A stretch of DNA of 64,000 bases from Promethearchaeota archaeon. Lineage in GTDB: Archaea > Asgardarchaeota > Lokiarchaeia > Sigyniarchaeales > SOKP01. A program made the translations under genes and the position numbers. Shown here piece by piece: positions 3,970-30,933 of the stretch (within the stretch, counting starts at the first letter, position 1; every line of letters starts with the position of its first letter). Below the pieces are notes generated by a model, which was not told the DNA's origin, searched no databases, and saw only the letters and a program-made list of their open reading frames with translations. Where the stretch lies: positions 5,236-69,235 of the forward strand of contig JBHLNW010000009.1 of the NCBI GenBank assembly GCA_048941185.1, written 5' to 3'.

Positions 3970-4875
3970 ATGCCAACGGGCTGTTTCGTCATATTGCTTC
4001 CCACCGATTCTGATTACAAGATTTTGGGATATTATTTTAAAGAGGGTAAATCTAGTTTTGAAATTAAAAATGATATTTTTCTAAGGTTAAATCTAGATCA
4101 TTCCAAGAATGAATATAATTTACTAAAAATAAAGGATCTTCAAATTTTTTCGTATAATCATAAATTTAAAGGAAAATTAACTCGGAATGCCTCAGGGCTT
4201 ATAATTGGGTTAATATTAAATGAAAATGACAAACCAGAAAAATTTCGTTCATCTCTTAAAGAAGCTGCAGAAGCTTTTGAAATCCCAAGTCTCAAAATTC
4301 TTAAGAAATCAAGAGAAGAATTTGAGGGGTTATTGAAGGATGTATATTTGGAGCATATAGAACCATTAGTAGATATATTACAACCTGAAGCATTAAAAGT
4401 TAGTATTATTAATATTACTAAATTTATGCTTAGCGGAGGGAAAAATGAAAGAAAAATTGCTCAAGAACTATTAGAAAAGGTTGAAAATGGTGATCATAAT
4501 AAAATTTCAGAGTATTATAATACCGCAGAAAGTGCAATGAAATCTTTAGATTATGAAAAAGCAGCCAAATTTTACGCTAAAGCTGCAGAAATTGCTGAAA
4601 GTCTGTATATAATGGATATAGCTGCTTCTCTTAAGGAAAAAGGCGATTTCTCTCAAAAAATACCTGATCTATCTAAAGAAAGAGAAAGAGTGGTACAAGA
4701 AGCTAGAAATGCTCTTAGAAATGAGGATTTTCATACTGCTTACACATTATATAGAAAAGCAAGTGAGATTTCTAAAAAATTAGTCCAATTTGATCAAGAA
4801 GAGGAATATAGATTAAAATCAAAAGCTTTAGAAGATTTTTATAAAATCGATGAAAAATATAGAAAAAATAAATAA
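3970..4875 (+). CDS. two-domain protein: N-terminal alpha/beta domain (longin/roadblock-like guess) plus two C-terminal MIT/TPR-like helical repeats
   Basis: 301-aa ORF. Residues ~1-105 alternate beta-like and helical segments (GCFVILLPT, KILGYYF, LQIFSYNHKF, GLIIGLILNE, KFRSSLKEAAEAFE). The C-terminal repeats AESAMKSLDYEKAAKFYAKAAEIAESL and QEARNALRNEDFHTAYTLYRKASEISKKL...YRLKSKALEDFYKIDEKYRK resemble the Vps4 MIT pattern (A..A...nYeeA..lY..A.e). Confidence 0.55.
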   Translation: MPTGCFVILLPTDSDYKILGYYFKEGKSSFEIKNDIFLRLNLDHSKNEYNLLKIKDLQIFSYNHKFKGKLTRNASGLIIGLILNENDKPEKFRSSLKEAAEAFEIPSLKILKKSREEFEGLLKDVYLEHIEPLVDILQPEALKVSIINITKFMLSGGKNERKIAQELLEKVENGDHNKISEYYNTAESAMKSLDYEKAAKFYAKAAEIAESLYIMDIAASLKEKGDFSQKIPDLSKERERVVQEARNALRNEDFHTAYTLYRKASEISKKLVQFDQEEEYRLKSKALEDFYKIDEKYRKNK

Positions 4876-4935
4876 ACTTCTTATGCTTTATTTTTCATAA
4901 ATAATATCCATTAAATTGCTGAATTTTTTTCTAAA

Positions 4936-5766
4936 ATGGTGGATTTTCATCGAAAGATAATATGCTTACTTACTGATTTTGGCTTAAAAGGTCAACATTA
5001 TGTAGCAAGTATGAAAGGAATAATACTAAAGATTAATCCTAGTATAAGAATAATGGATATAACGCATACTATTACTCCTTTTTCGATAATTGAAGCATCA
5101 TATATATTAAAAACCACTTATAGGTATTATCCTGAGGGAACGGTATATATAATTGTAGTGGATCCTGGTGTTGGAAGCTCTCGAGAAATATTAATTCTAA
5201 AAACCAAATCTAACCATTACTTTATTGGTCCTAATAATGGAATATTTTCTGATAATTTTATTAATAATATAGAGGAGTGTATTGAAATTCAAAATGATGA
5301 ATTCTTTAATAAACCAGTATCAAAAACATTCCACGGAAGAGATATTATGGCTCCAGTAGCTGCACACTTGATATCTGGTACTCCAATAAGCAAATTTGGT
5401 CCAAAATTTAATCCTAATAATTTAAAACAATCTCAGATTACATATAACATTGATTTTGAAAAAAAAGTTATCCAATGTTCAATCCAATATATTGACTCTT
5501 TTGGAAATGGCACAACTAATATAGAAATAGTAAATAATACAATTAAAAAAAGTCAAATCCGCATATACGAAAATGCAGAAATTAATTTTAAAGTTAAGGA
5601 AAAAAGCTATAAAGGATTTTTCGTTTTAAGTTTTTCACAGCTTCCAATAGGATCAATTGTATTTCTTGTAGGCTCAACAGGTTTTCTTGAAATTTCAATT
5701 AATCAAGGAAATGCATCAAAGATCCTTGGATTCGAAGTAGGAGAAATTATAACTATAGAATTATAG
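4936..5766 (+). CDS. S-adenosyl-L-methionine hydrolase (adenosine-forming), DUF62/chlorinase-fluorinase family
   Basis: N-terminal LLTDFGLKGQHYVASMKGIIL and VVDPGVGSSR motifs typical of the SAM hydroxide adenosyltransferase family; length 276 aa. Confidence 0.75.
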   Translation: MVDFHRKIICLLTDFGLKGQHYVASMKGIILKINPSIRIMDITHTITPFSIIEASYILKTTYRYYPEGTVYIIVVDPGVGSSREILILKTKSNHYFIGPNNGIFSDNFINNIEECIEIQNDEFFNKPVSKTFHGRDIMAPVAAHLISGTPISKFGPKFNPNNLKQSQITYNIDFEKKVIQCSIQYIDSFGNGTTNIEIVNNTIKKSQIRIYENAEINFKVKEKSYKGFFVLSFSQLPIGSIVFLVGSTGFLEISINQGNASKILGFEVGEIITIEL

Positions 5767-5781
5767 AAAAAAGTGTTTAAT

Positions 5782-6915
5782 ATGAATAATGAAATTTTGG
5801 TGTGTATTGAGAAAAACAATAAAAAATTTTTACAATCTGGCCAAATTTCTAAATACGTTTTTCCTATGAAAAGAATTGAGGCCCATGAGAAAAAAGTAAG
5901 TCATTTAATTACGAGATTTTTCATATTATCAATATCTCTAGATGGTTCTCCATTATACTTAGTACAAAAACGTGGAAAAAGTAAAAAAACATTTCCTGGA
6001 TATTTTACTGATTCATCATCAGGGCATGTAAATTGGGAAAAATACTTGGACTTAAATAAAATTAAGAATAATGCTTTAAGGGAACTTGAAGAAGAATTCG
6101 GAATCCCTCCAAGAGAAGTTAAGAAAGTGCAGCTTTATGATTTGAATTCAGAGGGTGATGAAATAGCATATATTTTTTTAGGATTTGTTAAATATGACGT
6201 TCCTTTAAATCCAGATGAGGAAGAATTAGATTTTAAATTTAGTAGATTTTATAACAAGGCTGAACTTGAAAAAATATTAGAAACTGAAAAATATATTGAT
6301 TATTCAAAACAAATTTGGGAAAAACTGTTAAATAAAGATATTTCCTCGATCTTCGAGAAGAAAAATGTAAATAATACCAAAAATACTTATAGAGTTGCTC
6401 TGTTTCTTGGAAGATTCCAACCTCTTCATCACGGGCATATTTATGTCATTAAGCAAATTTTAAAATTTAATAAAAAAATTAAAATTGGAATTGGTAGTTC
6501 TCAAATATCCAATACCTTAAATGATCCATTTACATCTGATGAAAGAAAAAAGTTTATTATCACAGCTCTAGAAAGAAGAAGTATTTCCTCAAAATCTTAC
6601 GAATTATTTGATATACCGGATATTTTCAACGCTAAAAAATGGGTAGATCATGTTATCTCAATTGTTGGGAAATTTGATATAGTTTATTCAAATAGTGACT
6701 GGGTGAGAGAATTATTTTCTAATAAGGGTATAAAAGTAGGGAACAAAATTTCCATTTTTAAAAAAAAGTTCAATGGGAACAATGTTAGAAATTTAATTAT
6801 TAAAAATAAAAAAGAGTGGAAAAGTTTAGTGCCTAATGAAGTTGTTGAACTTATAGGAGAATATAATGGGGTTAGTAGATTAAAAACTTTATATGAAAAA
6901 GAGAGAAAATCATAG
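5782..6915 (+). CDS. nadM: fusion protein: N-terminal Nudix hydrolase domain plus C-terminal archaeal-type nicotinamide-nucleotide adenylyltransferase
   Basis: Nudix signature RELEEEFGI (REUxEExGU) at about residue 100. NMNAT motif GRFQPLHHGH and later NDPFTSDERKKFI in the C-terminal half. The ORF track starts at GTG 5773; ATG at 5782. Confidence 0.75.
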   Translation: MNNEILVCIEKNNKKFLQSGQISKYVFPMKRIEAHEKKVSHLITRFFILSISLDGSPLYLVQKRGKSKKTFPGYFTDSSSGHVNWEKYLDLNKIKNNALRELEEEFGIPPREVKKVQLYDLNSEGDEIAYIFLGFVKYDVPLNPDEEELDFKFSRFYNKAELEKILETEKYIDYSKQIWEKLLNKDISSIFEKKNVNNTKNTYRVALFLGRFQPLHHGHIYVIKQILKFNKKIKIGIGSSQISNTLNDPFTSDERKKFIITALERRSISSKSYELFDIPDIFNAKKWVDHVISIVGKFDIVYSNSDWVRELFSNKGIKVGNKISIFKKKFNGNNVRNLIIKNKKEWKSLVPNEVVELIGEYNGVSRLKTLYEKERKS

Positions 6916-7973
6916 TGGTAGATAATACTTTAGAAATTGATGGAGCTTTAGGGGAAGGTGGAGGTGCCATACTTCGTATAGCAGCGGGATTTTCAATATT
7001 ATTAGAACGGCCAATTATAATCAATAATATACGAGCAAATAGACCTAAACCAGGTCTACGATTACAACATTTATTAGGTCTAAGAACTTTATCCAAATTA
7101 ACAAATAGTGAATTATCAGAATGTCAAGTTGGTACAGAAAAATTAACATTAAAACCAAGCCAATCAGTAAAAAGTAATATTGATGTAAAAATTACTACTG
7201 CAGCTAATATTGGTTTACTACTTCAGCCTATTCAAATCGCAAGTTTGGGTTTTAAAAAGCTTGACAAAATAAAGATAATTATTAATGGTGGTGGAACATT
7301 TGGAAAATGGGCTCCAAGTCTTAATTATCTTAAATATGTTACGTATAATATTTTTGGAAATCATGGATATACCATTGACATTGATATTCAAAAACATGGT
7401 TTTTACCCTAAAGGGGGTGCAGTTGCAATATGTACAATATATCCGCCTAAAAGCAAACTTAAATCGCTTGATTTAACAGAATTAGGCTTTATCAATTTAA
7501 TACAAGGAGAAATTATTTGTACAAATCATTTAATAAATAAAAAAATATGTGAAAGAATCAAAAAAACTCTAATACTCCACTTAAATAAAAATTTAGGCAT
7601 TGATGTTAAAATAAAATATAAATATGTAAATTCCTTAAGTCCAGGAGTAGGCCTTTCGTTGTGGGCAAATTCAGATACAGGGGCGATAATTTCTTCTGGA
7701 ACTATATTAGGTGAAAGAAATATTACTTCAGAAGATCTTGGTCGTATGGCAGCAGATAAAATCATAACATATATTAAAAACAAGATACCTGTTGATAATT
7801 ATTTAAGTGATCAATTAATTCCTTTCATAGGATTTATTGAAGAGCCTTCAAGCATAAAAGTCCTTGAGGTAACAAACCACACCAAAACTAACCTAGAATT
7901 ACTTAAGTTATTTTTAAAAAGAAATTATCAAATTAAAAAAGAAAAAACACATTTTATCATAGAATTTGAGTAA
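6915..7973 (+). CDS. rtcA: RNA 3'-terminal phosphate cyclase
   Basis: N-terminal EIDGALGEGGGAILRIAAGFSIL...RANRPKPGLRLQHL matches the RtcA signature. LSDQLIPF and a C-terminal His (EVTNHTKTNLELL) are present at the position of the adenylylated histidine. The GTG start overlaps the upstream stop (taGTG). Confidence 0.85.
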   Translation: MVDNTLEIDGALGEGGGAILRIAAGFSILLERPIIINNIRANRPKPGLRLQHLLGLRTLSKLTNSELSECQVGTEKLTLKPSQSVKSNIDVKITTAANIGLLLQPIQIASLGFKKLDKIKIIINGGGTFGKWAPSLNYLKYVTYNIFGNHGYTIDIDIQKHGFYPKGGAVAICTIYPPKSKLKSLDLTELGFINLIQGEIICTNHLINKKICERIKKTLILHLNKNLGIDVKIKYKYVNSLSPGVGLSLWANSDTGAIISSGTILGERNITSEDLGRMAADKIITYIKNKIPVDNYLSDQLIPFIGFIEEPSSIKVLEVTNHTKTNLELLKLFLKRNYQIKKEKTHFIIEFE

Positions 7974-8090
7974 ATTGATAAAAAACACATATAATAAGAA
8001 AGAATAATTTATCTATAGATTAGAAGAAATTTTTATAAGATTATTTTATTATATGTTTATTATAAAAATTATTAAAGTTTTCATATAACA

Positions 8091-8993
8091 ATGTCTCAGA
8101 CAGTTGCTGCATTTCAGCGGTGCCCTAGATGTGGAAATGAGAATGCAGCTGATAGTTACGCTTGTAATTTCTGTGGGCTTAGATTAAAAATAGAAAGAAT
8201 TGAAAAAATTAGGTTTTTTAGGAGATATGAAGCAGAATGGACTGGACCATATCGTTGGTATATGAAGATTTTTTATCTTTTTGTTAATGCTCCTAGAGCT
8301 TTTCATGACATCAATCATAAAAGAAGTAAAGCTCCTGGATGGCTAATTTTATTATTTTGCTCTTTATTATATGGATTAATGGGTTTAGCGTTCTTTTCAC
8401 ATGTTAATTTTGCTGGCAATCCACCCTTTTCTCTTGGTCATTTTTTATATGGTGCTAGTTTTTTTAGTGCCTTTTTTATTTTTGGATTTTGTTTTCAATT
8501 AATTTTCTTTTGGTTTTTAATATGGTTATTTGGTAAGGGAGCTAATTATGCTGTGGGGTTCACAGATAAGTTAGAAACCCGTTTTGGAGGATTAAAAGAA
8601 CAAAAAGAAAAATATAAAGAAACAGATGTAAGTCCATTTAGCATATATAAAGGTGGTACTATGCTACAATTAGAAGGAGCATATAAATTTAGAATGATGT
8701 TATGTGCGTTTACACCATTTTTGGTTATAAATGCTATTAAGAGTTTGGTTATACTTTTAGGATTTCCAACTGTAGATGCAATTAATATTGATCTAATATT
8801 CGATGCACCAACTTGGGTGACTTTAGATATAATCGATGCATTAACTTTGGCCACATGGGTACCTATTTTAATGACTCTTGCTATAAGAGAACTAAGTAAT
8901 TCTTCTACCACCCGTGTATTAATCCCTAATATCATTATTGGTGTAATAGTGGCCATTTTATTCTATTTCCTACGCCCAACATTATTTGGTTAA
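8091..8993 (+). CDS. zinc-ribbon membrane protein, possibly Yip1-like
   Basis: N-terminal CPRCGNENAADSYACNFCG zinc ribbon followed by 5-6 hydrophobic helices. The FVNAPRAFHDI segment before TM1 resembles Yip1-domain proteins (weak). Confidence 0.55.
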   Translation: MSQTVAAFQRCPRCGNENAADSYACNFCGLRLKIERIEKIRFFRRYEAEWTGPYRWYMKIFYLFVNAPRAFHDINHKRSKAPGWLILLFCSLLYGLMGLAFFSHVNFAGNPPFSLGHFLYGASFFSAFFIFGFCFQLIFFWFLIWLFGKGANYAVGFTDKLETRFGGLKEQKEKYKETDVSPFSIYKGGTMLQLEGAYKFRMMLCAFTPFLVINAIKSLVILLGFPTVDAINIDLIFDAPTWVTLDIIDALTLATWVPILMTLAIRELSNSSTTRVLIPNIIIGVIVAILFYFLRPTLFG

Positions 8994-9057
8994 ATTTATT
9001 AGCTCTCAACCCAAATGTAATATAAAAATTCTTTTTTTTTAATTATACAAATTTGAC

Positions 9058-9678
9058 ATGAATGAAGATTTTAATAATCCTGAGATTGAATCGAATATTG
9101 AATCTGAACTATTTGCATTAGTTAAATCCATAACAAATTTAAATATTAAATATCAAAACGGAATAGTTAATCAAAATTTCTTCAAAAAGGCATTAAAAAC
9201 AACCATGATTAACTTATTGAAGATTAATTTTACCTTAAAGGAAAATAAGCTTCATCTACCAGATCTCCTTGCTAGAATGGACCTAACGCAAGAGTATAAC
9301 TCCGCTATCGATATTATAAATCGAGTTTCATCACTTAGTCTATCTGATAAAGATATGGCAACAAAAAACCGTACCTTTTTAGAATTACCTGGAATTACTT
9401 CCAAAATAACAACGTCTTTTATCACCCTTATGGATGCGTTAACTTTGGATGGGTTACCAAAAAACGATCTAATTTTGAATTTATTTGAAGAGTTAATTTA
9501 TGATTTAGGTAAATTTCCAGGATTAGATAATATTCAATCTAGAGTTAAATCAGTTCAAACTAATGCCATTAATCAAGATGACCGAATATTTTCTAATGAA
9601 ACATTAAGAGAAAAATTAATAGAAGATTTATACCAAATTTTCAAACAATTTCAAAATAAACTAAATCTGAAATCATAG
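9058..9678 (+). CDS. vps28: Vps28 homologue (ESCRT-I subunit-like)
   Basis: Collinear by-eye matches to eukaryotic VPS28: ELFALVKSITNL vs ELFAVVKTMQAL; SFITLMDALTL vs LFITVMDKLRL; NLFEELIYDLGKFPGL vs DLRELMETMHRMSHLP; LREKLIEDLYQIFKQFQNKL vs VRQMLFDLESAYNAFNRFL. Similar length (206 vs ~221 aa). Confidence 0.75.
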   Translation: MNEDFNNPEIESNIESELFALVKSITNLNIKYQNGIVNQNFFKKALKTTMINLLKINFTLKENKLHLPDLLARMDLTQEYNSAIDIINRVSSLSLSDKDMATKNRTFLELPGITSKITTSFITLMDALTLDGLPKNDLILNLFEELIYDLGKFPGLDNIQSRVKSVQTNAINQDDRIFSNETLREKLIEDLYQIFKQFQNKLNLKS

Positions 9679-11088: not shown

Positions 11089-13338
11089 ATGAAATCAAGT
11101 GTAAAATCAAAAATAAAAATTTTAACCATTTTAGGAACCTTTTTCGCTTTCTCACCAATAATTACCACTAATCTTACTTTTATTACGGGTAATAGCATCA
11201 AAAGTTCGGAATATAGTGATGATATTAATTTAGATAATAAAAATCTACAAATCTCAGCAGTTTCGGGAAAGATTCATATTAGCGGTAATTCTGGTTGGAT
11301 TGATTTTAGAAATACGGGAAATTGCATAGGTCAAGGCACCTGTTCCGATCCTTATGTCATCGAAGATTTGGTAATAGATGGCAGAGGTTCAGGAAGTTGT
11401 ATCTTGATTGAATTCTCGAATGTGTATTTTAGGATTGAAAATTGTACGCTTTATAATTCCGGTTCAGGGCTATATAATGCAGGAATCAAATTAAGAAGCG
11501 TTTTAAATGGTACATTAATAAATAACGACTGTTCCACTAATAATGGTGTTGGGATAGGTTTACTGCAAAGTCAAAACATTACCATCGTTGGAAACATAGT
11601 AAACAATAATGATAATTTTGGTTTGTTTTTAGAAGTGAGTCATAATAATATTCTTTCAGAAAACACATTAAATGAGAATTCGGACGGGATTTACCTAGGT
11701 TTAAGCAATAAAAACACTATTTTGAATAACTCTGCTTCCAATAATGATTGGCAAGGGATTTATTTATCCTCTTCAAGTAATAACAATACTATAATGAACA
11801 ACTATGTTTCCTATAACAGCGACAATGGAATACACATATCTGATAGTCATGATATTAAAATTGTAGGAAATATCGCAAATCATAACAACTGGAATGGAAT
11901 ACTTATATGGGAAAGCAATAATAATACTATTTCGGGAAATAGTGCAAGCTATAACACTTTTGCGGGATTATATTTATGGAAAAGTAAAAAAAATATCATC
12001 GTAATGAACACAATTTCAAGTAATATTTATGGTATTTATTCAGATAATTCAAAATGTAATGAGGTTTCAGGTAACTTTTTTAGTGGAAATGGCGAGGATA
12101 TTTATGGTAATCCAGAAAGTTGCCCTTCTCATGAATTTCCTCTTGAAATTGTAATAATAATCTTATTGATTCTCTTTGTTATTATAATGGTTATAGGTGG
12201 GATGCTAATAATAAGAAAGAGAAGAATACCTAGAAAGCAAGTTATTTCAGATAGAAAATTGGGTGTAAGGTTAAAAGCGACTGAGATTGATACAAGAGAA
12301 AAGAAACGAAAGGTTGAAATTGAACCAGAACCAATTGTTCAATTGGAAATAGAAGAAGGAATAGTACATATTCCCCCGCTGGAAGTAGTGGAAGAAGTAG
12401 CTATCGAAAAAGTAATAATAGGCAAAGTTGCTAGGATAGAAAAAACTATTATTCCTGTTCAAACTTTTGAAGGCCATGGAAAGGGTATAAGCTCAGTGGT
12501 GTTCTCTCCTGATGGGAAATATGTTGTAAGTGCTTCAAACGACAAAACTATAAAAATATGGGAAACAACCTCAGGTAAGCTCATAAAAACGCTCGAGGGA
12601 CATAAAAAATATGTAACTTCAATTGCCATCTCTCCTGATGGAAAATACATAGTGAGTGGCTCGAACGATAGAACTGTAAAAGTCTGGGAATTTTCCACAG
12701 GAGCGTTAATCCGAACACTCGAAGGCCATAATTGGTACGTTACCGCCATAGCTGTTTCTCCTGATGGTAAATATATTGTCAGCGGTTCTTTTGATAAAGA
12801 TATTAGAGTATGGGATACAAATACCGGCGATATCGTAAGGACACTCGAGGGACACCAAAAAGAGGTACGTTCAGTTGCCATCTCTCCTGAGGGTGAATAT
12901 ATAGCTAGTGTCTCGGGTGACAGAACTCTAAAAGTCTGGAGTCTTGAGACTGGTCAGATTGTTAGAAGTATTGATGCTCACAAAAGACAAATAAATTCAG
13001 TTGTGTTTTCTCCTGATGGGAAACATGTCGTTAGTGGTTCGAATGATAAAACTATAAGAGAGTGGGATATTGCAACTGGAAAGCTCATGAGGTCTTTCGA
13101 AGGGCATAATTGGGATGTTTTAACTGTAGCTGTTTCTCTCGATGGTAATTATATGGTCAGTGGTTCATTTGATAAAGAAATTAAAGTGTGGGATTTAGCT
13201 ATTAACGAACTCGTAAGGACACTCGAGGGACATAAAAAATACGTAACTTCAGTTGCCATCTCTCCTGATAGTAAATATATAGTCAGTGGATCGAATGACA
13301 AGATCATAAAAATTTGGGAAGTCTTACAACAGCCATAG
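11089..13338 (+). CDS. receptor-like membrane protein: signal/TM, parallel beta-helix (PbH1) repeats, TM helix, seven WD40 repeats
   Basis: N-terminal hydrophobic KILTILGTFFAFSPIITT. About 22-aa repeats such as NNNDNFGLFLEVSHNNILSENTLNENSDGIYLGLSNKNTILNNSASNNDWQGIYL. TM LEIVIIILLILFVIIMVIGGMLII followed by RKRR. The C-terminus has seven exact 42-aa WD40 units (LEGH..V.S.A.SPDGKY.VSGS.D.T.K.W). Confidence 0.85.
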   Translation: MKSSVKSKIKILTILGTFFAFSPIITTNLTFITGNSIKSSEYSDDINLDNKNLQISAVSGKIHISGNSGWIDFRNTGNCIGQGTCSDPYVIEDLVIDGRGSGSCILIEFSNVYFRIENCTLYNSGSGLYNAGIKLRSVLNGTLINNDCSTNNGVGIGLLQSQNITIVGNIVNNNDNFGLFLEVSHNNILSENTLNENSDGIYLGLSNKNTILNNSASNNDWQGIYLSSSSNNNTIMNNYVSYNSDNGIHISDSHDIKIVGNIANHNNWNGILIWESNNNTISGNSASYNTFAGLYLWKSKKNIIVMNTISSNIYGIYSDNSKCNEVSGNFFSGNGEDIYGNPESCPSHEFPLEIVIIILLILFVIIMVIGGMLIIRKRRIPRKQVISDRKLGVRLKATEIDTREKKRKVEIEPEPIVQLEIEEGIVHIPPLEVVEEVAIEKVIIGKVARIEKTIIPVQTFEGHGKGISSVVFSPDGKYVVSASNDKTIKIWETTSGKLIKTLEGHKKYVTSIAISPDGKYIVSGSNDRTVKVWEFSTGALIRTLEGHNWYVTAIAVSPDGKYIVSGSFDKDIRVWDTNTGDIVRTLEGHQKEVRSVAISPEGEYIASVSGDRTLKVWSLETGQIVRSIDAHKRQINSVVFSPDGKHVVSGSNDKTIREWDIATGKLMRSFEGHNWDVLTVAVSLDGNYMVSGSFDKEIKVWDLAINELVRTLEGHKKYVTSVAISPDSKYIVSGSNDKIIKIWEVLQQP
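12463..13335 (+). repeat. intragenic tandem repeat, 7 x 126 nt (WD40 units)
   Basis: Repeat units are recognisable at DNA level, e.g. ggacataaaaaatatgtaacttcaattgccatctctcctgatgg at ~12600 vs ggacataaaaaatacgtaacttcagttgccatctctcctgatag at ~13230. Confidence 0.85.
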
Positions 13339-28737: not shown

Positions 28738-29631
28738 ATGGAAGATAATAATATTATTACTGCGAGTACAAAGGTTTTGTGTATAATTGGGTATCCAATT
28801 GAACATTCGATGAGCCCTATAATGCATAATGCTATGATCAAAGACCTAGCTCTTGATTTTATTTACTTAGCGTTTAATATTTATCCAAATAATTTGAAAT
28901 TTGCTATAAAGGCATTTAAAACCCTTAATATTAAAGGTATTAATGTGACTATCCCTTTCAAGCAAAAGATCATTAAGTATTTAGACGAAATTGATCCTAT
29001 ATCACAGAAAATTGGAGCGATAAACACAATAAAAAATGAGGAGGGATATCTAATTGGGAGAAATACTGATGCAGAAGGTGGTAAAAAAGCTTTATTCAAT
29101 GTTGGTTATAATATTTCTGGGACAAATGTCTTACTATTAGGTGCAGGCGGAGCAGCAAGAGCTTTGGGTTATAGTCTAGCTAAGGATGTGAATAAAATTG
29201 TAATAGTAAACAGAACTGAAAAGAAAGCAGAAAAACTTACAAGGGAATTGAACCAGAATTTTGGGATAAAGGCTGAACCAAAGAAATTTATAATTAATGT
29301 CCTGAAAGAAGAAACGAGAAAAGCTGATATATTAATAAATACTACTCCAGTGGGAATGTATCCAAATGTTAATGAATCACCAATTCCTGAGAAATTTTTG
29401 CATAAAGAATTAATTGTTTTTGATGTAATTTATAACCCATTAGAAACTAAATTAATAAAAAATGCTAATGAAAGAGGATGCAAAACACTAGGGGGTTTAG
29501 ATATGTTAGTAAATCAAGGTGCTGCTTCTTTTGAGTGGTGGACAAACAATAAACCAAATATTAACTTAATGAAGAAGGTAACTGTTGATTTTCTTAGAAA
29601 AAATAAAGAAAAAAACAAATTATTGAATTGA
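28738..29631 (+). CDS. aroE: shikimate 5-dehydrogenase
   Basis: IGYPIEHSMSPIMHNA, NVTIPFK, NTDAEG, and GAGGAARA in LLLGAGGAARALGY; typical AroE blocks. Confidence 0.85.
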   Translation: MEDNNIITASTKVLCIIGYPIEHSMSPIMHNAMIKDLALDFIYLAFNIYPNNLKFAIKAFKTLNIKGINVTIPFKQKIIKYLDEIDPISQKIGAINTIKNEEGYLIGRNTDAEGGKKALFNVGYNISGTNVLLLGAGGAARALGYSLAKDVNKIVIVNRTEKKAEKLTRELNQNFGIKAEPKKFIINVLKEETRKADILINTTPVGMYPNVNESPIPEKFLHKELIVFDVIYNPLETKLIKNANERGCKTLGGLDMLVNQGAASFEWWTNNKPNINLMKKVTVDFLRKNKEKNKLLN

Positions 29632-29988
29632 GGTTCCACAAAGAGCACAAAATTTTGCATTTCCGGTTTTGTCTAACTCAGATCCACAATTATAACAAAA
29701 AATTGGTTTTTCTTCAGCTTTTTGTGATTTTATAATAATTTTTTGTTGTTCCTGTTGATTTAAAGACCCAACTACTTGGTAATTTGAATTTAGTTGATTA
29801 TTTTCCTTTTCTTCATAACAAACACTATTACAATGTATACATCTCCTTTTATGTTCCTTATCTAAATAAACAGCAAGGTAAATTAATAACCCGATACCAC
29901 CTGTGAATATAGCCAAAATAATTGCTAATGCAATATTAAAATCGTTTGGTTTTGTATAAACATTCATCTTACATTCTGGGCAATACAT
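29620..29988 (-). CDS. LITAF-like (CxxC, hydrophobic stretch, CxxC) membrane-associated zinc-ribbon protein with an extra C-terminal zinc ribbon, paralogue 1
   Basis: YCPECK...(13 aa)...IALAIILAIFTGGIGLLIYLAVYL..EHKRRCIHCNS, then a Q/N-rich linker, then FCYNCGSELDKTGNAKFCALCG. Confidence 0.6.
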   Translation of the reverse strand: MYCPECKMNVYTKPNDFNIALAIILAIFTGGIGLLIYLAVYLDKEHKRRCIHCNSVCYEEKENNQLNSNYQVVGSLNQQEQQKIIIKSQKAEEKPIFCYNCGSELDKTGNAKFCALCGTSIQ

Positions 29989-30119
29989 TTTTCTATCACT
30001 CCAAATTTTTTAATTTTTTACTTGAATATAAGGAAATTTTAATTAAATTAAAAAAAATTGGAGTCCGATTTTTAAAATTGATGAAGATTAATATCTCTAT
30101 CAAAAAATAGATAAAAATT

Positions 30120-30488
30120 TTATATAATTTTACTTCCACAATTCTGGCAGAATTTTGTACCAGCTTCTACTTTTTCGCCACAAAATGCGCAAAAATTAGG
30201 TTTAGCACCTAAAATTTCTTCAGTTGAGTTTGTAAGTGTGTTATATAAACCCTTTTGGGTTTCAGATTGAGATTGATAGGTATAAGGATGTGAATTCTTA
30301 AAAGTTGAAATTTTAGTTCCGCAATGGATACAATGCTGTTTTGGTTTATTATAATGAACAGCAAGGTAAATTATCAACCCGATTCCCCCCGTGAAGATTA
30401 ACAATATTACTGCAAGACAAGTATCAATCTTCTCACGTGTCAATAAAACCTTTTGCTGACAACGGGGGCAAAAAGCAGTTTCATTCAT
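30120..30488 (-). CDS. LITAF-like zinc-ribbon membrane protein, paralogue 2
   Basis: FCPRCQQKV...CLAVILLIFTGGIGLIIYLAVHY..KQHCIHCGT, linker, then FCAFCGEKVEAGTKFCQNCG. DNA-level similarity to paralogue 1 across the hydrophobic segment. Confidence 0.6.
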   Translation of the reverse strand: MNETAFCPRCQQKVLLTREKIDTCLAVILLIFTGGIGLIIYLAVHYNKPKQHCIHCGTKISTFKNSHPYTYQSQSETQKGLYNTLTNSTEEILGAKPNFCAFCGEKVEAGTKFCQNCGSKII

Positions 30489-30546
30489 TTAAAATTCTCT
30501 AATCTTTATTTTTCTTTTAATAATTTAAAATAATTAATATAAGTTT

Positions 30547-30933
30547 CTATTCTTTAATCGTACTTCCGCAACTAGGACAAGTAGTTTCATAATTTTTTAT
30601 TTCTTCTTGGCAATATGGACAAATTATGCTTTTTTCTTTTTCTGTTTTTTCTTGTTCAATTGTTTGAAGTATTCGAGCAATCTGTGCTTTTGGTTCTGGA
30701 AAATCTTCCTTTGATTTGTAAAATTCTAATTTATGATGGCATGTTGGACAAATTTTTCTTTTTAAAATAACATAACGATAAATTAAAAATGGAATTAAAG
30801 CAATACCTAATGAAGAAATGATAGTAAGAATCCAAATGTTATAATACATACTATCCATAGCCCTTCTTTTTGGCTTCAAGATTTCTTTCTCACAATGATT
30901 ACAATATGCGAAATTTTTCCGCATTTCTCTCAT
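30547..30933 (-). CDS. LITAF-like zinc-ribbon membrane protein, paralogue 3 (divergent)
   Basis: YCNHCEKEI...IWILTIISSLGIALIPFLIYRYVIL.RKICPTCHH, linker, then ICPYCQEEIKNYETTCPSCG. Confidence 0.55.
   Translation of the reverse strand: MREMRKNFAYCNHCEKEILKPKRRAMDSMYYNIWILTIISSLGIALIPFLIYRYVILKRKICPTCHHKLEFYKSKEDFPEPKAQIARILQTIEQEKTEKEKSIICPYCQEEIKNYETTCPSCGSTIKE

Follow-up and report, generated by a model that had tools for sequence, protein, structure and literature searches.

Proteins of the LITAF type are among the few membrane hairpins known to be both monotopic and stabilised by zinc. LITAF itself contains about one zinc per protein, is monotopic, and loses its membrane association upon mutation of its zinc knuckles, which were probed at C96 and C148 (PMC5095921); it also supports high membrane curvature (PMC8353527). 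Caveolin and the reticulons, used as analogies for it (PMC5095921), likewise have a hydrophobic hairpin in one leaflet that is able to wedge or curve membranes, albeit without a zinc clamp. Here we describe three tandem minus-strand genes, labelled P1, P2 and P3, in a 64,000-nt stretch of DNA from a Promethearchaeota archaeon (assembly GCA_048941185.1, contig JBHLNW010000009.1, positions 5,236 to 69,235; the whole stretch is referred to below as the window). Their products probably carry a split zinc ribbon of the LITAF type whose hydrophobic hairpin is re-entrant, and would thus be zinc-clamped monotopic anchors, each tethering a cytoplasmic zinc ribbon.

According to this reading, which has the best support of those compared here, P3, P2 and P1 would be anciently diverged paralogues within an Asgard-archaeal family of small membrane proteins. 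Their N-terminal 60–70 residues would fold as a LITAF-like 'split' zinc ribbon, in which the first CxxC knuckle sits on a β-hairpin, a 20–25-residue helix–Gly/Pro turn–helix element dips into the cytoplasmic leaflet and then returns, and the second CxxC knuckle completes one Cys4 zinc site. Because the second knuckle would complete this single site, zinc would clamp the hairpin at its base, making the protein monotopic. A flexible linker would then hold a further Cys4 zinc ribbon, of the ordinary kind, on the cytoplasmic side. We infer zinc binding and monotopic topology for P1–P3, as well as any adaptor or curvature role. The most likely role would be that of a zinc-stabilised membrane anchor, possibly also a leaflet wedge, which would keep a small interaction module of the zinc-ribbon type against the membrane's inner face. 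The analogy with LITAF (PMC8353527) makes wedging or bending of the membrane plausible; the hairpins of caveolin and the reticulons, which have no sequence relation to these proteins, work in a like manner.

The three open reading frames were found exactly at the coordinates given for them in a preliminary description of this DNA, and contain the following features.

30547–30933, minus strand: P3 gene, open reading frame of 128 aa; LITAF-like module, conserved helix and C-terminal zinc ribbon
30715–30909, minus strand: P3 LITAF-like split zinc ribbon, residues 9–73 (PF10601; hhalign against vertebrate LITAF)
30892–30903, minus strand: P3 knuckle 1, C11/C14, within the module
30763–30849, minus strand: P3 hydrophobic segment, residues 29–57 (AlphaFold2/DSSP: helix 28–40, break S41–A45, helix 46–56)
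30739–30750, minus strand: P3 knuckle 2, C62/C65, within the module
30646–30699, minus strand: P3 Pro-flanked helix, residues 79–96, PEPKAQIARILQTIEQEK (P79, I85, R87, I88 and I92 invariant in orthologues)
30565–30621, minus strand: P3 C-terminal Cys4 zinc ribbon, C105/C108/C119/C122 (PF13240, 25.5 bits; DZR, 28.1 bits; cysteines invariant)
30120–30488, minus strand: P2 gene, open reading frame of 122 aa; LITAF-like module, disordered Q/S/T-rich linker and C-terminal zinc ribbon
30300–30479, minus strand: P2 LITAF-like module, residues 4–63, with knuckles C7/C10 and C53/C56 (PF10601, AlphaFold2)
30351–30422, minus strand: P2 predicted hydrophobic hairpin, residues 23–46, turn at T33-G34-G35 (AlphaFold2)
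30135–30191, minus strand: P2 C-terminal Cys4 zinc ribbon, C100/C103/C114/C117 (PF13240, 36.9 bits; cysteines invariant)
29996–30002, minus strand: Shine-Dalgarno-like GGAGTGA, 7 nt upstream of the P1 ATG (read from the sequence; weak, in an AT-rich genome)
29620–29988, minus strand: P1 gene, open reading frame of 122 aa; same architecture, most divergent copy
29821–29988, minus strand: P1 LITAF-like module, residues 1–56, with knuckles C3/C6 and C50/C53 (profile match and alignment)
29863–29940, minus strand: P1 hydrophobic segment, residues 17–42 (alignment)
29635–29697, minus strand: P1 C-terminal Cys4 zinc ribbon, C98/C101/C114/C117 (alignment; DZR, 22.3 bits, below its gathering score; phrog_2546 profile positions 1–24)

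The genes are co-oriented, with intergenic gaps of 58 and 131 bp, in a window with a GC content of 26–36% per 2-kb block (mostly about 27–32%; about 29% for the genome). The shared architecture described for the triplet, an N-terminal knuckle pair plus an extra C-terminal ribbon, was confirmed in all three proteins. Each contains four CxxC motifs, two of them flanking the hydrophobic stretch and two making up the C-terminal ribbon, in the order CxxC, 13–17 mostly polar residues, hydrophobic stretch, basic segment, CxxC, linker and CxxC-x10-12-CxxC ribbon from N- to C-terminus. All motifs quoted earlier were found: IFTGGIGL, which contains the central Gly in P1 and P2 (the corresponding P3 sequence being SSLGIALIPF), and the second-knuckle motifs HKRRCIHC, KQHCIHC and KICPTC, each upstream of the linker. 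Invariant positions include C7, C10, C53, C56, T33 and G37 among orthologues of the P2 module, and S41, G43 and F49 in the P3 hydrophobic segment, where P48 is nearly so (45 orthologues). The linkers are disordered and Q/S/T/P-rich in P1 and P2, while P3 has a conserved helix there. This Pro-flanked helix between module and ribbon is restricted to P3-type proteins and is without a match to any known motif; AlphaFold2 placed it at residues 82–100 with a low predicted local distance difference test score (pLDDT), and the helix sequence (FPEPKAQIARILQTIEQEK), when compared by eye with MIM1 and MIM2 consensus motifs, fits neither.

In common with LITAF/SIMPLE and CDIP1, the archaeal module has a CxxC, a short β region, 20–25 hydrophobic residues that include a central Gly and an I-P-aromatic motif, a second CxxC and an aromatic-Y-K tail, and it may form the same kind of zinc-clamped monotopic hairpin as LITAF. 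There are also clear differences. The archaeal module is N-terminal (starting at residue 3–11) whereas the LITAF domain is C-terminal; the archaeal proteins have no Pro-rich region, PSAP or PPxY motif, add a C-terminal zinc ribbon, have a hydrophobic core that is not Cys-rich, unlike that of LITAF, and are encoded in tandem arrays of 2–4 genes in cells with no endosomes to act on. The second knuckle had been likened to the HxCxxC of LITAF, but the His two residues before it is absent from P1 (RRCIHC), P2 (QHCIHC, with an adjacent His) and P3 (KICPTC). Since mutational tests of the LITAF knuckles concerned C96 and C148 (PMC5095921), His at this position may not be essential. The C-terminal ribbon truly belongs to the Zn_Ribbon_1/DZR families (PF13240, PF12773), whereas a hydrophobic insertion, about 42 residues long, parts the two knuckles of the N-terminal module. 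The NCBI names of the array proteins, only 'zinc-ribbon domain-containing protein' or 'hypothetical', miss the module.

Profile searches with PF10601 (zf-LITAF-like, gathering score 23.8 bits) matched P3 with 36.1 bits (profile positions 6–70 of 70) and P2 with 26.6 bits (positions 5–69 of 70), both passing, while P1 with 18.5 bits (positions 6–65 of 70) stayed below the gathering score. At E ≤ 0.01 the profile matched 42 of 44 isolated modules, and at E ≤ 0.001 57 of 149 distant representatives. The assignment was already latent in databases, being precomputed on many P3-type proteins and on most P3 orthologue clusters of the public protein collection. No rival family for the module was seen among the profile matches of the 149 distant representatives, nor was the module assigned to an unrelated, known zinc-ribbon family. 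NCBIfam returned sub-threshold noise only, PADLOC defence models gave no match, and a PDB sequence search with the module profile gave nothing below E = 0.39. The sole other recurrent match was BRI3 (PF10164; 13 of 44 modules, up to E = 1e-4, below gathering score), which shares a Cys-knuckle–hydrophobic–Cys-knuckle element in the C-terminal part of its profile; BRI3, however, is a eukaryotic lysosomal two-segment protein, and throughout the family PF10601 always matched at least as well. Judged by these profiles, the N-terminal half is zf-LITAF-like, with no competing family. The C-terminal ribbon passed the PF13240 gathering score (25 bits) in P2 and P3, and in P1 stayed below it at 14.2 bits with the Cys pattern kept.

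For direct comparison with eukaryotic proteins, human LITAF and CDIP1 sequences were used after validation. The LITAF sequence (161 aa, CCPSC ending at 99, HYCPNC ending at 151) agreed with published numbering (PMC5095921), a database protein was 99% identical to its LITAF domain, and PF10601 scored 87.9 bits on LITAF and 83.5 bits on CDIP1. A homologue search with the human LITAF domain gave only 19 vertebrate sequences, and the eukaryotic profile is therefore shallow. Alignment by hhalign of 44 archaeal module sequences to five vertebrate LITAF/CDIP1 domains gave 92.7–93.7% probability (E = 2–4e-7, 60–64 columns), with both knuckles, the central Gly, the IPF motif (LIPFLIY in P3, FIPFCVD in LITAF) and the aromatic-Y-K tail (FYK in P3) in register. 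The real alignment scored 38.6 (probability 93.7%), as opposed to 10.0 (0.2%) for a reversed LITAF alignment and a maximum of 21.6 (22%) over 100 full column shuffles. Among 150 shuffles keeping the knuckles and block order (mean 20.6, standard deviation 4.0, maximum 34.8), the real score was never reached. As these architecture-keeping shuffles averaged 20.6 versus 38.6 for the real alignment, about half of the signal reflects the generic CxxC–hydrophobic–CxxC layout and half is position-specific.

Several of these results weigh against a LITAF affinity, the share of the hhalign score owed to layout being one and the sub-threshold P1 score another. The isolated P3 module was borderline at 24.3 bits versus the 23.8 needed, a second stretch adding to the score of full-length P3. 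By subfamily, P3 alone aligned to LITAF with 79% probability and P2 alone with just 22.5% (96.6% for P3 versus P2), and the archaeal hidden Markov model (HMM) scored only 1–12.5 bits on vertebrate LITAFs. An exhaustive profile search of 1.84 billion representatives produced no recognisable eukaryotic LITAF among the matches listed (150 of 360 at E ≤ 1e-3), and so the archaeal profile alone does not reach eukaryotes. No match to LITAF reached significance in Foldseek; with the P3 model against BFVD, a LITAF protein from an iridovirus ranked 49th (E = 0.78). For the P2 model against BFVD and PDB nothing was rated significant, and local 23–24-residue matches to RanBP2/NZF-type fingers (E > 4) probably involve the C-terminal ribbon. 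Taken together, what the preliminary description called LITAF-like holds for the PF10601 match and for an hhalign probability of 93% that beats all shuffles, and does not hold for domain position and the His at −2; PF10601 supports it in P3, P2 and nearly all isolated modules, but not at gathering score in P1. By sequence comparison the relation to LITAF is remote, and descent of the module and eukaryotic LITAF from one ancestor is plausible, though unproven. Both models found their best structural match, aligned over the whole length, in A0A2Z4GYZ6, an unnamed viral protein of 106 aa in BFVD (E = 2.2e-5 and probability 1.00 with the P3 model, E = 2e-3 with the P2 model).

The main rival explanation is convergence, in which a hydrophobic hairpin was independently inserted between the knuckles of a prokaryotic Zn_Ribbon_1-type ribbon, giving a LITAF-like working without kinship with eukaryotic LITAF. 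We regard this as unlikely, though with an appreciable chance of being correct. The knuckles of the P2 module (FCPRCQQKV...HCIHCGTKI) do resemble those of the protein's own C-terminal ribbon (FCAFCGEKV...FCQNCGSKI), and the DZR match on P2 spans residues 8–118, pairing an N-terminal with a C-terminal knuckle; the weak reverse profile scores on vertebrate LITAF and the generic half of the hhalign score point the same way, as do the phage families and mobile-element contigs that carry the module, in some cases with the domain order swapped. Convergence would nevertheless have to account for a position-specific similarity above all 150 architecture-preserving shuffles (z about 4.5), for a central Gly, post-turn IPF motif and aromatic-Y-K tail in register, and for the curated PF10601 gathering score being passed by P3 and P2.

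The phage families in question are phrog_2546, which matches the P2 module with 31.7 bits at profile positions 121–177 of 180 and, at positions 1–24, the P1 ribbon, and phrog_3845, which likewise matches the P2 module at its C-terminus. Both families share the module, and phrog_2546 the ribbon as well; they differ from P1–P3 in being viral, and phrog_2546 also in having the two domains swapped, ribbon first and module last. Other distant members include P0154 (L089 151–753, 200 aa), with two tandem LITAF-like modules, at the head of a contig that also encodes the tailed-virus proteins Dit_like, Pam3_gp18 and E217_GP41; P0239, adjoining an HTH_17 excisionase-type gene; P0194, adjoining an IS240 transposase; and a short protein consisting of the module alone, whose archaeal contig also encodes a Ras-like GTPase and fibrillarin. 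A tblastn search of 50,697 phage records with the module and two variant architectures gave no informative match, and a viral contig scan one weak partial match. Because phage families match and virus-like or mobile-element contigs carry members, the module is not confined to Asgard archaea and eukaryotes. This weakens the earlier suggestion of a eukaryotic-signature module, in which the expanded Asgard array itself stands.

Whether P1–P3 are monotopic depends on the hydrophobic stretch, which was surveyed in 228 complete modules. The knuckles are spaced 39–48 residues apart (median 42), with an uncharged stretch between them of median 23 residues (5th–95th percentile 20–25), and Gly or Pro occurs in the central third of the hydrophobic stretch in all but one module (227/228). 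Lys plus Arg per ten flanking residues is balanced on the two sides (2.15 vs 2.42), unlike the asymmetry expected for a bitopic protein. AlphaFold2 with the family alignment predicted, for P2, strands at residues 4–7 and 12–17, a helix at 23–32, a break at TGG, a second helix at 36–47, and strands at 52–53 and 59 (pLDDT 73–92 over residues 1–60). The P3 model showed a helix at 28–40, a five-residue break and a helix at 46–56, at lower confidence (mean pLDDT 66.8). Thus, two predicted helices of 10–13 residues each lie within the hydrophobic stretch.

Residue covariation among 299 non-identical modules was analysed by mean-field direct coupling analysis (DCA). Of the 20 highest-ranking long-range pairs, twelve lay within an antiparallel band with the predicted turn at its centre (hypergeometric p about 0.0035, for a band defined post hoc), including the helix–helix pairs 23-35, 22-37 and 29-37/38, and the pairs 13-51, 12-52 and 13-57 between the first β-hairpin and the region of the second knuckle; the outcome was unchanged in the P1/P2-type subset. 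As the band was chosen after the first list had been seen, we take the covariation to be supportive, not decisive, of an antiparallel hairpin with the knuckles apposed. The post hoc definition, the modest effective number of sequences (Neff 176) and a hydrophobic stretch of 20–25 residues that is long enough to span a bilayer too count against the hairpin.

The alternative is that these are ordinary single-pass proteins with a short extracytoplasmic N-terminal tail, in which the first CxxC takes no part in a shared zinc site and LITAF is resembled only superficially. There are many bitopic proteins among the zinc-ribbon proteins of prokaryotes, and an uncharged stretch of 20–25 residues suits a transmembrane helix. 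We find this improbable: an invariant lone CxxC outside the cell would be unexplained, the flanks are equally basic, the mid-stretch Gly/Pro break is near-universal and modelled by AlphaFold2 as two short helices, and the covarying pairs 13-51, 12-52 and 17-48 would have to sit across the membrane. Together, the survey, the models and the covariation favour a re-entrant hairpin, probably clamped by a single Cys4 site, over a bitopic helix; the hairpin proposed in the preliminary description would be consistent with both the predicted helix–break–helix and the antiparallel covariation.

The family is conserved well beyond the window. Full-length homologues form 48 clusters for P2 and 49 for P3 (E = 1e-15 to 1e-78), every named source being an Asgard metagenome-assembled genome (MAG), and an NCBI protein identical to the window's P2 derives from a MAG that bears the label 'Candidatus Thorarchaeota archaeon'. 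In a scan of one genome per GTDB species, full-length matches were present in 32 species genomes, labelled as Promethearchaeota/Promethearchaeia, Hermod-, Thor- or Hodarchaeota or as 'uncultured archaeon', and the remaining matches concerned the generic C-terminal ribbon only. All 32 loci contained 2–4 tandem co-oriented module genes, which bears out the proposal of an expanded family in an archaeon that also has Vps28, a Vps28-like gene being present in the window. There were four module genes at loci L019, L021, L027 and L029, and two only, without a recognisable P3-type copy, at others (e.g. L002, L015 and L020). MAGs of one batch (JBHL..., L005–L036) have orthologues 60–87% identical and the same synteny, yet their phylum labels vary between Thor-, Hod-, Hermod- and Promethearchaeota; these labels look unreliable, and we did not rely on them beyond 'Asgard'. 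The four module cysteines were invariant in the 44-sequence alignment and at least 90% conserved in the 149 distant representatives; their co-invariance, together with the covarying strand–knuckle pairs, speaks indirectly for a zinc site shared by the two knuckles.

P1 and P2 had been described as similar at the DNA level and recently duplicated. The similarity is real in the hydrophobic core (71% nucleotide identity), but the proteins are 44% identical overall and the aligned codons only 57%. In contrast, P1 is 67–78% identical to the third array gene of other genomes, and as it is far closer to that gene than to P2, the duplication must be ancient rather than recent. The local DNA similarity would then reflect constraint on the hydrophobic core, not recency. 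The co-conserved paralogues probably act together.

On one side the array has genes for thymidylate kinase and an M28 peptidase as neighbours, and on the other shikimate dehydrogenase, an arrangement also seen in a closed 3.3-Mb chromosome. The thymidylate kinase/M28 synteny occurs in four sequenced contexts (L001, L002, L003 and, with a divergent P3-type member, L087), and the arrangement is retained in part in more distant contigs, among them one with a divergent P3-type protein. The array often adjoins thymidylate kinase. Neighbours in the window comprise shikimate kinase, dehydroquinase, shikimate dehydrogenase, adenylate and thymidylate kinases, the M28 peptidase and ribosomal proteins. 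These are housekeeping genes, and a context that points to no functional partner does not favour the proposed role.

[quoted passage not shown] RING-fused members and a Vps28-like gene in the same genome provide hints in this direction, but we consider the scenario a long shot. Further features of the window are listed below.

3970–4875, plus strand: 301-aa protein, further upstream; marginal COG4_N match (28.1 bits versus a gathering score of 27.3, no separate stretch)
8091–8993, plus strand: 300-aa protein with N-terminal zinc ribbon, preceding the Vps28-like gene
9058–9678, plus strand: Vps28-like protein, 206 aa (PF03997, 26.3 bits, gathering score 24.5, profile positions 2–188 of 188)
11089–13338, plus strand: 749-aa protein with a NosD/right-handed β-helix N-terminal half and a seven-blade WD40 propeller (WD40, 301 bits)

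The region 3970–9678 may represent an ESCRT-I-type neighbourhood. It lies apart from the array, the Vps28-like gene being about 20 kb away and outside the conserved neighbourhood. Two of the 149 distant representatives, P0135 (L092 137–703) and P0175 (L091 20–598), have a RING-H2 domain fused C-terminally after module and ribbon; with PF13639 (gathering score 27.3) the former passed at 33.8 bits and the latter was just below at 26.8. They would be putative membrane-anchored E3 ligases and alone hint at a connection to ubiquitin, their contigs being too short for them to be placed. The gene beside P0135 was tested as an aroE synteny partner and proved unrelated.

Closely related is the view that P1–P3 are an archaeal ESCRT-I or ubiquitin-ligase adaptor on membranes, equivalent to LITAF/CDIP1, as implied by the ESCRT-I/Nedd4 link and the P(S/T)AP- or PPxY-like linker motifs raised in the preliminary description. 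LITAF binds TSG101 and Nedd4-family ligases (PMC5095921), and the Vps28-like protein and the RING-H2 fusions speak for such a role. The motifs, however, did not materialise: among 100 family proteins (97 database homologues and the three window proteins) P(S/T)AP was absent and PPxY occurred once, by chance, and searches for LPxY and YPxL were negative. No ESCRT or ubiquitin genes adjoined the array in the loci examined, Vps28 is distant, and the RING fusions are rare and on short contigs. We therefore find an ESCRT-I/Nedd4-type adaptor very doubtful, and ESCRT or ubiquitin-adaptor function, rare RING fusions aside, is unsupported. Finally, that the open reading frames are spurious or decaying, as long chance frames are common at about 29% GC, has virtually no chance of being right and is refuted by dozens of orthologue clusters at 40–87% identity with invariant cysteines and conserved length and order.

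In the searchable full-text literature, we found no mention of LITAF together with Asgard archaea or eukaryotic signature proteins. Texts pairing LITAF with 'archaea' did so incidentally, and zf-LITAF-like was named for eukaryotes alone. A conserved multi-copy Asgard family with a LITAF-like module does not appear there.

What is conserved across these related archaea is an array of small proteins without a demonstrated link to eukaryote-like vesicle sorting. If P1–P3 are indeed zinc-clamped monotopic anchors, they would offer a simple prokaryotic model for this mode of membrane insertion, and a concrete set of small proteins in which zinc content, topology, curvature and binding to Asgard ESCRT and ubiquitin proteins could be studied. 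If they also represent the archaeal stock of LITAF/CDIP1-type proteins, the module would be a new membrane-embedded eukaryotic signature; if they are convergent, the insertion of a hairpin into a zinc ribbon would be a recurrent route to a monotopic anchor.

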